Assembly: GCA_018057825.1 (NCBI GenBank)
Contig: JAGPCY010000020.1
Span: 105,634 to 169,633 of the forward strand
Reading direction: 5' to 3'
DNA: 64,000 bases
DNA from: Kofleriaceae bacterium
Lineage (GTDB): Bacteria > Myxococcota_A > Polyangia > Haliangiales > Haliangiaceae
Shown one piece after another: positions 114 to 61,008 of the stretch (within the stretch, counting starts at the first letter, position 1; each line of letters begins with the position of its first letter). The notes beneath the pieces were generated by a model. That model had not been told where the DNA came from. It searched no databases and saw only the letters and a list, made by a program, of their open reading frames with translations. Made by a program: the position numbers and the translations under genes.

Positions 114-322
114 GCGGAGGCGGAGACCGAGACCGAGACCGAGGCGGAGACCGAGACCGAGGCGGAGACCGAGGCCGAGACCGAGACCGAGACCGAGGCG
201 GAGACCGAGACCGAGGCGGAGACCGAGGCCGAGGCGGAGACCGAGACCGAGGCGGAGACCGAGACCGAGGCGGAGACCGAGGCCGAGTCCGAGGTGGAGA
301 CGGAGGCCGAGACCGAGGCCGA
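114..322. repeat. Hexanucleotide tandem array R1 (GAGACC/GAGGCG/GAGGCC/GAGTCC units, about 35 copies) between convergent genes
   Basis: Direct reading shows uninterrupted 6-bp periodicity over about 210 bp. The same family recurs at 21162, 53261, 53774 and 60797. Confidence 0.9.
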
Positions 323-328
323 ACCTGC

Positions 329-928
329 TCAGCGTCGGCCAAGGACGATTTCGGTCAGGGCAGCGGCGTGGGCGTCGGCGAAGGTGGTGGCGCCGACGGA
401 CAGCACGACATCGCCGTCGGCGTCGGCCCAGCGCCGCGCTGCCGGGCTACGATCCTCGACGTAGCCGAGCTTGTCGAAGACCCGCAAGGACGCGACGTTG
501 TCAGGCACCACCGACGCGAAGATCTGGGCCAGGCCGCAGCCGCTCGGCGGCGGCGCGAACCCGAACGCGTGCAGCATGAGCGCGAAGCGGGTACCCAGGC
601 CGCGGCCCTGGGCCGCCGGCCGACCGATCAAGAACGCGAACTCGGCGGCGTCGTCGGTCAGGCCGCGCAGGTCGGCGTCGCCGGCCAGCTCGCCGTCGAC
701 GTACAAGAGGAACTGCCGCGCCCCGGCCTCGTCGAGATCGGCGTAGTGCTCGATCACGTCGGCCTGGGTCAGCGGCTCGGCGTGCCCGAGCAAGGTCGCG
801 TTGGCCGGGTCGCTGTAGAACCCGGCCAGGGCCTCGGCGTGGGCCGCGACCTCGCCCACGGTCGGCTCCTCGGCGACCAGCACCAGGCCGGCGGTGTGCC
901 AGGTGATCCGGGCGCGCGGCGTCCTCAC
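329..928 (-). CDS. GNAT-family N-acetyltransferase
   Basis: Acetyl-CoA-binding motif (..[26 protein letters not shown]..). A GTG start at 928 overlaps the upstream TetR stop by 4 nt (GTGA). The long N-terminal extension in the ORF track runs through the repeat and is rejected. Confidence 0.6.
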
Positions 929-1563
929 GGGCTCGACGGTACACCCGGCGCGACCCCGGTTGGGGCTGGGTCGACGAGCAACGCGACGATGGCGTCCGTC
1001 AGGCGCGTGCTCATGGTCGCGGGCGCCGGGGCCAGCTCGGGATACAAGAGCGACATGAGGACCGCGCCGCGGATCGTGGCGAAGGCCATGAACACCCGGT
1101 CGGCCAGGTCGGGCGGCGGGGTCGGCAGCACCTCGCGGAGCCACGCGGTCAGGTCGGCGAACACCTCGCGATAGGCCGCGGCCGCGGTGTCGCTCGCCCA
1201 GGCCAGCGGGATCTCGAGGTTCAGACGTCGACGGTAGGCCGGCGATAGGTTCGGGCCGACGAACGCCAGCTCGCACAGCCGCCGCGTCACCGAGCGGAGC
1301 TCGCGGTCGTCATCACGCAGGATCTCGCGGATCTGCAAGACCAGCGTCCGGTAGGTCTGGCGCGAGATCTCGGCGAACAGCGCCGCGGTCGTCGGGAAAT
1401 AGCGATGCAGCGACGCGACCCCGACGCCGGCCCGCGCCGCGATCGCCGTGAGGGTGGCGTCGGGGCCGAGCTCGACCGCGGCGGCCAGCACCGCGTCGAC
1501 GATCTCCTTCGAGTCGGCGCGGCTCGGGGCCGGCTCGGGCGGAGTGGGCAACGGCGCGCGCAT
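925..1563 (-). CDS. TetR/AcrR-family transcriptional regulator
   Basis: N-terminal HTH (SKEIVDAVLAAAVELGPDATLTAIAARAGVGVASLHRYFPT) is typical TetR. Length 213 aa, ATG at 1563. Confidence 0.7.
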   Translation of the reverse strand: MRAPLPTPPEPAPSRADSKEIVDAVLAAAVELGPDATLTAIAARAGVGVASLHRYFPTTAALFAEISRQTYRTLVLQIREILRDDDRELRSVTRRLCELAFVGPNLSPAYRRRLNLEIPLAWASDTAAAAYREVFADLTAWLREVLPTPPPDLADRVFMAFATIRGAVLMSLLYPELAPAPATMSTRLTDAIVALLVDPAPTGVAPGVPSSP

Positions 1564-58806: not shown

Positions 58807-60794
58807 GCGACGAGCCCAAGCACCCCGCGGCCGAGCCGCCCGCCGCCGAGCCCGCCGAGCCCGCCGCCGAGCCGCCCGCGGCCGAGCCGCCCGCCGCCGA
58901 GCCGCCCGCCGCCGAGCCGCCCGCCGCCGAGCCGCCCGCCGAGCCCACCGCCGACGACCCCAGCGCGTCGGCGTCGATGGACGCGATCGACCAGCCGACC
59001 ATGGCCGAGCGCGCGTGGCGCCGGGCCCAGACGATCGGTCCGGCGGTCGCCGACGTCACCCGCCAGGTCGCCCACGCCCTCGGCCCGGCCTCGCCGTACC
59101 ACCGCCACGACTTCATCGTGATCGCCTTCGCGCTCGCGGTGGTCGCCCTGGGCGGCGTCGCCCATCGCTACCTGGTCACGCCCACCGTCGAGACCTTCCG
59201 CACCCGCGGCCTGACCCTGACCCGACCGGCCACCTGGCTCGCGCCCGAGGAGGTGCCGCGGGTCACCCCGCGCCTGGTCGCCGCGTCGGCGCCGCGTCCG
59301 CGCCGCGCCGGCGAGCTGCCGTATCACGTCGTCTACACGTCGTCGCTCGATCCCGACGTCCGCATGGAGGTCCGGATCGAGGAGCGGCCCCCGTGGTCCA
59401 ACGCGATCGCCAGCCTCGAGCTCGATCGTCGGACCCGGTGGGGCGAGCTGTACGCCGCCGACGCCAGCACGGTGCACACGATCGGCCGCCATAGCTGGCT
59501 CAAGACCTCGTTCCGCTACGCCTACGCGCCGGGCAAGGGCGACGAACCGCGGATCGGTCATGCCACCGAGCTGGCCACCGTCGATCGCGAGCGGCTGTAC
59601 GCGGTCACGCTGTACGGCGGCCGGGCCCAGGTCGCGCGGCTGGTCGCCACGATCATGCCCAGCCTGCGGGTCGCGTCGCTCACCGGGGTGCCCCTGGTCG
59701 CGACCACCGCGCGGCTCCAGCCCAAGGTGCCGGCCGCGGTCCAGACCGCGTTCGATCGCACGGTCATGGTGGTCGTGGCCGACGTCGTCGACGGCCAGCT
59801 CCGGGCGGTGGGCGGCGGCTCGGGGGCGATCATCGGCGGCGACGGCTCGATCCTCACCAACCATCACCTCCTGGTCGACCGCGAGCGGCGACCCCACGCG
59901 GTGTTCGTGATCGCGCGGTCGCGCGGCGTCGCGCAGCCGCCCGAGCTGGTGTGCGCCGGTCACCCGACGGCGTCGAAGCTCGCCCCGGAGCTCGACCTCG
60001 CGCTCATCAAGTGTGACGTCGACCTCGACGGTCGGCCGTGGACCCCGGCCCAGGCCTCGGCCTGGCCAGCCTTCACCCGCCGCCCCGAGGCCCCCTTCGT
60101 GCCCGGCCAGCGCCTGTGGGTGCTCGGCTTTCCCGACGTCGGCGGCGGCGCCCTGACCGTGTCGCAAGGCGCGGTCCAGGGCGTGCCGTCGCCCGGGTCC
60201 GGCGACGCGTACATCAAGACCGACGCGACGATCACCCACGGCAACTCCGGCGGCCCGGTGGTCGACGACGACGGCCAGCTCATCGGCATCGCCAGCGCGT
60301 TCCGCGTGCAGTCGACCGTGCGCGGCACGACGGTGCAGACCACCACCGCCGGCCTCATCCGCCCCGTCGGCCTGGCCAGCCGCATCTTCGCGGTGGTCAA
60401 GACCGGCTGGGTGCCGCGCGAGGGCCGGACGTCCCTCGATCTCGAGCCGACCGCGATCGAGGCCGAGGCCGAGGGCATCCGCCTGTCGACCCGCATCGTC
60501 ACCCACGCCAGCGGCCAGCCGATCGCCGGCGCGCTGCTCATGGTGCTGCGGCCGGGCGTGGCGGCCAGCGCGATCGACGTCAATCGCCTCGACGATCTGG
60601 TGATCTCCTGGGGTCGGTCTGGCGCCGACGGGCAGGTCTACCTGAAGCAGCCGGTGCCCGCGCCCGGGACGTACACCGTCATGGTCACCGCCGACGGCCA
60701 CAGCCCGCTCATCGGTCAGGACGCGCTCACCCTGGGCGCGGATACGCCGCCGTTCTTCGATCCGTGGAGCGAGGTCCGCCTCAACCCGGAGTGA
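58803..60794 (+). CDS. Membrane-anchored trypsin-like (S1) serine protease with an N-terminal (AAEPP)n tandem-repeat region
   Basis: ATG overlaps the prsW stop (ATGA). TDATITHGNSGGPVV catalytic-Ser motif. The 15-bp tandem repeat gccgccgagccgccc x5 (58830-58945) encodes EPPAA repeats. Confidence 0.75.
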   Translation: MSDEPKHPAAEPPAAEPAEPAAEPPAAEPPAAEPPAAEPPAAEPPAEPTADDPSASASMDAIDQPTMAERAWRRAQTIGPAVADVTRQVAHALGPASPYHRHDFIVIAFALAVVALGGVAHRYLVTPTVETFRTRGLTLTRPATWLAPEEVPRVTPRLVAASAPRPRRAGELPYHVVYTSSLDPDVRMEVRIEERPPWSNAIASLELDRRTRWGELYAADASTVHTIGRHSWLKTSFRYAYAPGKGDEPRIGHATELATVDRERLYAVTLYGGRAQVARLVATIMPSLRVASLTGVPLVATTARLQPKVPAAVQTAFDRTVMVVVADVVDGQLRAVGGGSGAIIGGDGSILTNHHLLVDRERRPHAVFVIARSRGVAQPPELVCAGHPTASKLAPELDLALIKCDVDLDGRPWTPAQASAWPAFTRRPEAPFVPGQRLWVLGFPDVGGGALTVSQGAVQGVPSPGSGDAYIKTDATITHGNSGGPVVDDDGQLIGIASAFRVQSTVRGTTVQTTTAGLIRPVGLASRIFAVVKTGWVPREGRTSLDLEPTAIEAEAEGIRLSTRIVTHASGQPIAGALLMVLRPGVAASAIDVNRLDDLVISWGRSGADGQVYLKQPVPAPGTYTVMVTADGHSPLIGQDALTLGADTPPFFDPWSEVRLNPE

Positions 60795-60796
60795 GC

Positions 60797-61008
60797 GGGG
60801 ACGGGGACGGGGACGGCGGGCCGCCTCGGTCTCGGCCTCGGTCTCGGTCTCGGCCTCGGCCTCGGCCTCGGTCTCGGCCTCGGTCTCGGTCTCGGCCTCG
60901 GACTCGGTCTCGGTCTCGGTCTCGGTCTCGGCCTCGTCTCGGCCTCGGTCTCGGTCTCGGCCGCGGTCTCTGCCTCGGCCTCCTTCTCTGCCTCAGCCTC
61001 CGCCTCAG
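60797..61008. repeat. Hexanucleotide tandem array R5 (GGGGAC x3 then GGTCTC/GGCCTC, about 30 copies; reverse orientation)
   Basis: Begins 3 nt after the protease stop and ends in a degenerate CTCNGC tail. Confidence 0.9.

Follow-up and report, generated by a model that had tools for sequence, protein, structure and literature searches.

The 64,000-nt stretch of Kofleriaceae DNA analysed here (contig JAGPCY010000020.1, positions 105,634–169,633; hereafter the window) contains five arrays of a hexanucleotide repeat, GAGACC and its variants. They belong to a genome-specific, non-coding and length-variable hexamer satellite that is confined to the 3' ends of transcription units. Our favoured reading, to which we give an even chance, is that the family is mainly a self-perpetuating, near-neutral satellite and not a dedicated regulatory device. 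In this lineage it fills roughly 15–48% of the convergent spacers and makes up about 1% of the DNA, and its placement follows a very sharp rule: the arrays stand directly after stop codons and are also tied to the identity of those codons. Dispersed satellite families with short units are textbook features of eukaryotic genomes, and among bacteria we know of them in very few lineages (the cyanobacterial STRR and the mycobacterial MIRU).

Hexamer arrays after stop codons

The window was scanned with Tandem Repeats Finder and with a regular-expression search for in-register GAGNCN or its reverse complement (at least three copies). This gave five arrays, all with a 6-bp period and all built from one unit family, GAG-[A/G/T]-C-[C/G], and no sixth GAGNCN array with three or more units. 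Counted strictly, the plus-strand arrays span 117–320, 21165–21326 and 53802–54017 and the reverse-complement arrays 53262–53297 and 60822–61006; degenerate edge units stretch them to the wider limits drawn in an earlier, sequence-only reading of this DNA. The arrays hold 7–41 copies over 36–246 nt with unit-to-unit matches of 82–92%, and they are free of indels except for a single 5-nt unit in array 5, near 60936–60940. The unit counts are 70 for GAGACC, 23 for GAGGCC, 15 for GAGGCG and 12 for GAGTCC. Higher-order periods of 18, 42 and 54 nt were also seen with Tandem Repeats Finder. The G+C content is 67–77% throughout the window and 74% in the genome.

Each of the five arrays occupies a spacer: arrays 1 and 3 separate convergent genes (stop to stop), and arrays 2, 4 and 5 co-directional ones. 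Array 1 (114–322, plus strand) consists of ∼35 units of GAGACC, GAGGCG and GAGGCC with higher-order periods of 18 and 54 nt, and fills the spacer between the TAG (111–113) of a photolyase-related gene and the minus-strand stop (329–331) of a GNAT acetyltransferase gene. Array 3 (53260–53302, minus strand) has ∼7 units, GAGACC, GAGCCC and GAGGCC on the minus strand, and fills a 53-nt spacer between the TAG (53253–53255) of a Ser/Thr kinase gene and the minus-strand stop (53309–53311) of a small secreted-protein gene. Array 2 (21161–21340, plus strand; ∼30 units, 42-nt higher-order period) has GGUCUC on its sense strand; beginning 1 nt past the minus-strand stop (21342–21344) of a 375-aa gene, it lies at least 109 nt before a minus-strand eCIS_core/DUF4157 gene, which starts at 21051 or 20748. 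Array 4 (53774–54019, plus strand) has ∼41 units, is rich in GAGTCC and reads GGUCUC/GGACUC in the sense of transcription. It starts 2–4 nt after the minus-strand stop (54022–54024) of a 668-aa gene; its far end, next to and upstream of a conserved -10-like box, is 39 nt from the ATG (53734) of the small secreted-protein gene. Array 5 (60797–61008, minus strand) starts 2 nt after the TGA (60792–60794) of a trypsin-like protease gene and is made of (GGGGAC)3 followed by ∼31 GGTCTC/GGCCTC units, with the 5-nt slip and degenerate distal units; downstream of it is the AT-richer promoter region (∼390 nt) of a gene of the poly(A) polymerase/CCA-adding type (61400).

Arrays 2, 4 and 5 thus begin 1–4 nt past the upstream stop and end 39 to ∼390 nt ahead of the next start. 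Every gene 3' end that faces an array in the window (seven of seven) has its stop 1–11 nt from the generously drawn array edge. The neighbouring genes are functionally unrelated, and they also include the 668-aa protein, which has no known function. The sequence-only reading had described five arrays of a single 6-bp unit family which lie close to stop codons and occupy 3' untranslated regions or intergenic spacers, never confirmed coding sequence, and in the window our analysis agrees with it on each of these points.

Metagenomes were scanned with a 27-nt mixed-unit pattern, which matched more than 119 contigs, almost all of them belonging to a single sample (Ga0075163). One metagenome contig (L139) matches window positions 196–7397 at 98.25% identity and therefore comes from the same species-level population. 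The population set comprises 115 loci (722 kb) with 160 arrays. Genes were mapped with our own caller based on third-position G+C (GC3), with the arrays masked; it agrees with the public gene calls on the overlapping record (GCA_018062915.1 or a near-identical assembly). As the loci were chosen for carrying an array, absolute spacer occupancies are inflated, and arrays without the search pattern served as the unselected subset (38 of the 157 arrays left after removal of a duplicate contig). The window has one array every 12.8 kb, the unselected arrays give a density of at least one in 19 kb, and by extrapolation a genome probably holds several hundred.

Outside called genes lie 155 of the 160 population arrays. 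The sequence-only reading of a dispersed family would have been refuted by arrays equally frequent in coding regions or absent beyond the window; neither applies, given this count and the more than 119 further contigs with arrays. The other five comprise one call-extension error (L178) and four arrays (loci L209 and L225) that look like genuine disordered linkers, translated in the Glu-Thr or the Ser-Val/Ser-Asp frame. These two frames (GAG-ACC and GTC-TCG) are the two with 100% G/C third positions. Together with the (Glu-Thr)n encoded by (GAGACC)n in other phyla, with the four true linkers and with a public gene call that takes in array 4, this is the case for arrays being (Glu-Thr/Ala)n or (Ser-Val/Asp)n tails, read-through extensions or small repeat proteins, which we find scarcely credible. 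The stops ahead of the arrays are conserved in orthologues, and no register relative to the upstream frame is preferred (22:18:27 and 23:24:26). Start codons are absent from the arrays, save a stray GTG at 294–296 in array 1. Moreover, ahead of array 4 the codons of the Glu-Thr frame have A/T at the third position, which is atypical for this genome, and the false N-terminal extension made from array 4 precedes a clear signal peptide.

In the population set an array is present in 42 of 88 spacers between convergent genes, in 26 of 329 co-directional spacers and in 3 of 99 divergent ones (odds ratio 10.6, p = 4e-16), and the unselected arrays show the same bias, with 8 of 54 convergent versus 6 of 309 co-directional spacers (p = 2e-4). 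Facing stops lie a median of 14 nt from the array, 136 of 176 within 30 nt, while facing starts lie a median of 104 nt away and none at 12 nt or less. Promoters and gene 5' ends are thus shunned, and the earlier suggestion of a contingency locus is not supported. Convergent spacers without an array have a median length of 19 nt, and the non-array remainder of those with one has a median of 24 nt. The arrays are therefore pure additions to tiny convergent spacers, which alone accounts for their contact with stop codons. In co-directional spacers the non-array remainder is 133 nt, compared with 32 nt in array-free ones, which places the arrays at transcription-unit boundaries and not at operon junctions.

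The ten-fold enrichment in convergent spacers and the avoidance of operon junctions also speak for a possible, though on balance unlikely, alternative in which the arrays act as putative termination or insulation pads. They would provide 100–250 nt of untranslated, poorly structured RNA with many pyrimidine-C dinucleotides for the loading of Rho or RNases, which would halt transcription ahead of the neighbouring gene, in a genome of 74% G+C that is nearly without hairpin-plus-U terminators and has its convergent genes ∼20 bp apart. Such a role would be served by the GGUCUC strand, which is the sense strand in 17 of 26 co-directional spacers and in 20 of 29 when the window is included. The bias is slight (p = 0.06), and over all arrays neither orientation is preferred with respect to the adjoining gene (69:73), so that there is no strand-specific design. 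A strict orientation rule, as suggested by the three co-directional arrays of the window (3/3 with GGUCUC as sense), was given up because it was lost in the larger sample (17:9 among co-directional arrays and 69:73 overall). Array 4, which lies upstream of a gene with its own promoter 3' of the array, is neutral as regards the termination pads.

Independence of orientation would fit a target in double-stranded DNA. The arrays could then be platforms for a sequence-specific protein (a nucleoid organiser, a gyrase or topoisomerase site, a recombination hotspot) or clusters of a restriction-modification site, GGTCTC being the BsaI/Eco31I sequence. Positive supercoils build up in convergent spacers, and REP/BIME elements at convergent sites are reported to bind gyrase. 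Unit positions 1–3 and 5 are constant and positions 4 and 6 vary, in a detection pattern that itself requires GAG.C. We nevertheless hold such platforms to be very improbable. At sites of this type the units of relatives are quite different, close lineages gain and lose arrays, and the arrays have no known binding protein. That both orientations occur within one 64-kb window speaks against a replication-polar motif such as Chi or KOPS. GGTCTC occurs 115 times in the window, against 57.6 ± 7.5 in shuffled sequence, with 70 of the 115 sites within arrays. Outside the arrays it is not avoided (45 sites versus ∼50–58 expected), and the dense BsaI/Eco31I clusters on which the sequence-only reading had remarked are thus a by-product of the repeat unit.

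Unit composition, RNA structure and turnover

The population arrays are composed of GAGACC (53.5%), GAGGCC (20.4%), GAGGCG (16.5%), GAGTCC (3.9%) and GAGACG (2.4%), and no second non-coding hexamer family was found in the 722 kb of population loci. Within arrays the three main units follow one another in a nearly random order, and the rare ones cluster, with GAGTCC-GAGTCC adjacency 5.6-fold and GAGACG-GAGACG adjacency 4.4-fold. Array lengths, which come from short-read assemblies that can collapse repeats, are unimodal at 100–200 bp with few short arrays. The array edges consist of decaying units, and 99 aligned flanks revealed no conserved ends, terminal inverted repeats, target duplications or junction motif. 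The arrangement of direct repeats and unique spacers of a CRISPR array was not found, the units being contiguous. No known RNA families or tRNAs were found within or near the arrays. One convergent spacer (L116, 683–1108; also L218) holds two inverted arrays around a unique, less G+C-rich segment of ∼160 bp in which neither a tRNA nor an Rfam family was recognised; pairing between the arrays could produce a long stem.

Folding gives array RNA much less structure than the genomic background, whichever strand is read, with minimum free energies per nt of -0.28 and -0.31 compared with -0.47 (standard deviation 0.08), a difference of about 2–3 standard deviations, and arrays 1 and 2 are less stable than all of the ∼300 background windows. 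None of the six frames of the arrays contains a stop codon. The sense strands fold no better than their shuffled versions (z = +0.55, +1.3 and +2.2), and only the antisense of the GAGTCC-rich array 4 folds well (z = -5.1). The sequence-only reading had proposed a REP-like mRNA stabiliser. The location of the arrays, after stop codons and between convergent genes, is indeed the classic one of REP/BIME elements, and yet the arrays have no palindrome or other self-complementarity, so that hairpin-forming stabilisers of mRNA 3' ends are a most improbable explanation. We place assembly artefacts in the same class. Short-read contigs do often break at arrays, but arrays with identical flanks occur in independent assemblies (the NCBI metagenome-assembled genome, Logan contigs and a JGI metagenome), and the gene order over arrays 4 and 5 is the same as in relatives without arrays.

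The low structure also bears on the proposed termination pads. Canonical terminators are not enriched (4 found versus 3.5 expected in 20 kb), a test for intrinsic terminators gave no terminator-like site in arrays 3–5 (scanned region 44001–64000), and T runs are absent from all array sequences in the window. On the GGUCUC strand, C makes up 42–45% and G 28–31% in arrays 1, 2 and 5. By the features of a rut region (∼80 nt, untranslated, unstructured, C > G) the window arrays are untranslated and poorly structured, but C exceeds G on the GGUCUC strand only and the GAGACC strand is G-rich. The length mode of 100–200 nt is of the same order as a Rho footprint plus a release zone. Against a role in termination stands the turnover of the arrays: close relatives have none at the corresponding sites, and between strains array 1 ranges from 120 to 209 nt, so that no single array is needed.

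This turnover can be followed at several sites. For array 1, the window shows 35 units and the 98.25%-identical contig with the same flanks only 20 (209 versus 120 nt), and the arrays of L116 and L218, which represent one locus in a ∼98% identical context, differ by 7 units. Variable length between strains, which had been offered as one possibility from the sequence alone, is thus observed. Relatives with 668-aa proteins that are 83, 76, 73 and 67% identical (the homologues are labelled Kofleriaceae or Myxococcales) have no array at the site of array 4, and this shows the evolutionary youth of the array. In five relatives the orthologous spacer is 40–92 nt long and has no array. Ahead of the small secreted-protein gene, all relatives have the -10-like box, GCCTAAC(C/T)T or G(A/C)TTAAC, at ∼30 nt from the ATG (window 53735–53775; L107 ∼12070–12105; L110 ∼12035–12072; L230 ∼4870–4908; L231 ∼5005–5041), and array 4 is inserted exactly between the upstream stop codon and this box. 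At the loci orthologous to array 5, the AT-rich region follows directly after the stop codon. Gene C-termini and downstream promoter regions are conserved in the array-free relatives, and the gain of an array leaves both unchanged.

Related genomes have hexamer families of their own. In L108 (12005–12215; the same in L109), where the 668-aa protein is 72% identical, the site orthologous to array 4 is occupied by (CGGGAT/CGGAAT/CGGTAT)35. This array begins 6 nt past the orthologous stop and ends ∼10 nt from the stop of the neighbouring small gene, which is inverted there, so that the array fills a convergent spacer. At other loci from Myxococcota, arrays next to stops are built from different units again, most of which follow the general form (CCGANN)n, and further hexamer families include the (GATTCC)/(GATCCC) runs in L042 and (GGACCC)n in L064. 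A different kind of repeat follows the orthologous 668-aa gene in another relative (L233, ∼5080–5500), namely ∼90-bp tandem copies containing the hairpin GGCGGCCGAAGCCGCCGCC, which are a REP-like element and not a hexamer array. A scan of species genomes for (GAGACC)4 gave matches in many phyla. Among the matches listed, most of the short ones are in-frame coding (Glu-Thr)n, for instance in Actinomycetota and roseobacters, and the long intergenic arrays are concentrated in Myxococcota and a few other groups. The earlier statement that hexamer arrays are rare in bacteria therefore stands broadly for non-coding arrays, but not for (GAGACC)n as such, which is common elsewhere as coding sequence.

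In our favoured reading, each array would be a pure addition of ∼100–250 bp between a stop codon and the next stop or promoter. Fast gain and loss of units, local spread of rare variants and decaying edges are the marks of slipped-strand mispairing and unequal exchange, and by these processes the arrays would grow and shrink. An array would persist only where an untranslated insert is harmless, after the stops at transcription-unit ends and above all in tiny convergent spacers. Promoters and operon junctions would be barred, and inside genes arrays would be tolerated rarely and in the two frames with good codons (Glu-Thr and Ser-Val/Ser-Asp). The physical effect would be to turn spacers of ∼20 bp into ∼150–200 bp of unusually unstructured sequence without stops and starts, and the cell may secondarily use the stretched spacer as room for termination. 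New arrays may be seeded from existing ones by ectopic or template-switch copying, as suggested by the one mixed unit set that all loci share.

Stop-codon identity and the origin of the arrays

Stops abutting arrays are TAG in 51%, TAA in 7% and TGA in 42% of cases, compared with 20, 3 and 76% for stops elsewhere (odds ratio 4.1, p = 4e-12). Over the population loci L111–L229 and the window, TAG and TAA together make up 58% of the stops beside arrays and 24–26% of the others (odds ratio ∼4, p ∼1e-10). The excess of TAG and TAA persists when overlapping gene pairs are left out, by spacer class, at a higher cut-off for the gene score and within strata of third-position G+C. In convergent spacers the odds of an array rise ∼4-fold with each TAG/TAA end (0.33 without such an end, 1.16 with one and 5.5 with two).

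Several explanations for this link were tried and rejected. Neither gene overlaps of the ATGA type nor the G+C content or length of the genes produce it. The length of the stop-free read-through tract is no explanation, since array-free genes keep 71–76% TGA at any distance to the next in-frame stop. One particular read-through dipeptide frame and remodelled gene ends were also rejected, and so was a pairing of TA at both spacer ends, the two ends being statistically independent. No explanation that we tried accounts for the link.

In another reading, a dedicated mechanism would deposit pre-formed (GAGRCS)n blocks beside stops, preferably TAG or TAA. Candidates would be a non-autonomous, targeted mobile element that consists of repeats, or the addition of repeats on a template by a reverse transcriptase or polymerase at breaks that form at transcription-unit ends. 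Such active seeding would fit the ∼4-fold rise in odds with each TAG/TAA end and the one unit set, with its three main variants mixed near-randomly at every locus, as well as the scarcity of proto-arrays and the unimodal lengths. The clean additions in spacers of ∼20 bp, which hardly have room for a slippage seed, point the same way, as does the finding that each related genome has its own hexamer family, such as the (CGGGAT)35 at the orthologous site in L108. We still consider it quite unlikely. No terminal inverted repeats, target-site duplications or junction motif were found, the distance from stop to array varies, and the two ends of convergent spacers behave independently. Recent copying between locus pairs was not seen: shared unit strings are only modestly above those in shuffled arrays, and the best pairs are halves at contig ends. 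No candidate enzyme was identified. Carriage by phages is not supported either, as the pattern is absent from the viral contig collection.

Much of this tells also against the near-neutral satellite that we favour. It does not predict the strong excess of TAG and TAA. A neutral origin in situ leaves the same mixed unit set in hundreds of ∼20-bp spacers unaccounted for, and the near-random mixing of the three main units is not expected of simple local slippage. Short proto-arrays are scarce and lengths unimodal at 100–200 bp, and clear recent copying is not evident between any two loci, the longest strings in common lying at contig ends and probably being the halves of one array. The avoidance of operon junctions and the preferred length are also compatible with a functional role. 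In addition, all gene maps come from our GC3-based caller, and the array lengths from assemblies prone to repeat collapse.

A broader proposal combines several of these elements. The hexamer arrays would form part of an undescribed class of genome-specific, stop-adjacent (CCGANN)n 3'-end arrays in Kofleriaceae and other Myxococcota, actively seeded and preferentially beside TAG and TAA; jointly with this, the arrays would replace hairpin terminators as loading and buffer zones between closely packed convergent transcription units, with the unit of each lineage co-evolving with a seeding or binding factor. Taken together, we regard these two claims as rather doubtful. If the family is neutral, it offers a clean natural system for the birth, spread and loss of satellites, and reveals the 'dead zones' of a compact genome. 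If it is functional, it bears on how very G+C-rich bacteria without classical terminators end convergent transcription.

Neighbouring genes and known repeat systems

The arrays have practical consequences for sequence data. They systematically fragment short-read assemblies of the window organism, as illustrated by four independent short-read assemblies of one gene (L103–L106) which end ∼30–35 nt past its stop, within array 4. Gene callers are led astray by them as well, and the resulting false (Ser-Val)n or (Glu-Thr)n extensions reach the protein databases. A public call (L102, 12004–12720, equal to window 53309–54025, minus strand) fuses array 4 with the small secreted protein, giving a false 238-aa product in which a (Ser-Asp/Ser-Val)n N-terminus precedes the real signal peptide. 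An eCIS_core (DUF4157) gene with an array immediately upstream is found both in the window (18871–21051, minus strand) and in L178 (209–3397, minus strand), where our GC3 caller wrongly extended it through the array.

Other repeats in the window are of different kinds. A (CGCCGT)6 run at 4091–4125 was considered as a further member of the family and rejected, being the coding (Ala-Val)n core of a lipoprotein signal peptide. It belongs to an uncalled gene for a small Cys-rich lipoprotein (4086–4433, plus strand), whose GTG start overlaps the upstream TAG (TAGTG) and whose signal peptide VRALAVAVAVAVAAGC is encoded by (CGCCGT)6; the convergent spacer that is left measures 10 nt. A 127-bp direct repeat (6328–6558; 1.8 copies, 92% identical) largely overlaps the spacer at 6375–6585 between two minus-strand genes. 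The N-terminal region of the trypsin-like protease contains a 15-nt coding repeat, (Pro-Ala-Ala-Glu-Pro)n, at 58824–58956, which is an ordinary coding tandem repeat in contrast to the non-coding hexamer family. Further features are an 827-aa protein (45607–48090, minus strand) with major-vault-protein shoulder and vault repeat domains (PF11978, PF17795), that is, a homologue of the eukaryote-type vault protein in a myxobacterium, and 1.36 kb without a called gene (24677–26038), the least G+C-rich part of the window (∼0.67).

Literature on GAGACC repeats, on myxobacterial hexanucleotide repeats and on repeats between convergent genes yielded no description of such a family. The unit GAGACC itself is shared with the coding (Glu-Thr)n tracts of Actinomycetota and roseobacters, for example (Glu-Thr)17 in a 449-aa protein of L062. 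Those tracts are in frame inside genes, usually pure and for the most part shorter (24–48 nt in Actinomycetota and ∼100 nt in roseobacters), whereas the window arrays lie outside genes, measure 36–246 nt and mix their units. Like bacterial microsatellites and VNTRs, the arrays consist of head-to-tail units of at most 6 bp which are gained and lost between strains. Contingency loci, however, lie in the promoters or 5' coding ends of surface or restriction genes and have their own unit each, while here a single unit family is spread over 3' spacers by the hundred and keeps away from promoters (arrays in 3 of 99 divergent spacers).

The MIRU-VNTR of Mycobacterium tuberculosis are dispersed intergenic tandem repeats in a high-G+C host, with a copy number that varies between strains. 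The hexamer arrays likewise form a dispersed intergenic tandem family of variable copy number in a high-G+C bacterium. MIRU units, however, are 40–100 bp long and lie inside operons, with small reading frames that overlap the neighbouring stops and starts, whereas the window arrays have 6-bp units, shun operon junctions and keep no fixed frame relative to their neighbours. REP/BIME elements (REPIN) number hundreds per genome, and they are extragenic, located after stops or between convergent genes, genome-specific and without orientation bias. The arrays are similarly extragenic, stop-adjacent, enriched between convergent genes, genome-specific and without orientation bias. REPs, on the other hand, are imperfect palindromes of 20–40 nt which form hairpins and are moved by RAYT transposases. 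The hexamer arrays have neither a palindrome nor conserved ends, and no link to a transposase was found in the ∼0.8 Mb of the population that was covered. Both MIRU and REP/BIME thus fail on defining features.

The closest known analogue is the STRR heptamer arrays of cyanobacteria, which are also very short tandem units at many non-coding sites of one genome and restricted to a lineage. A genome-wide copy number of about 100 is said to have been given for them by Mazel et al. in 1990. The STRR of heterocyst-forming cyanobacteria have units of 7 bp, some of which can form hairpins, and roles in transcript stability or translational coupling have been proposed for them (PMC2670836). The window arrays differ in that their units are 6 bp long, G+C-rich and without hairpins, where those of the STRR are AT-richer. 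They are also tied to stops and convergent spacers and are hosted by a myxobacterium, and the two families have no sequence relationship.

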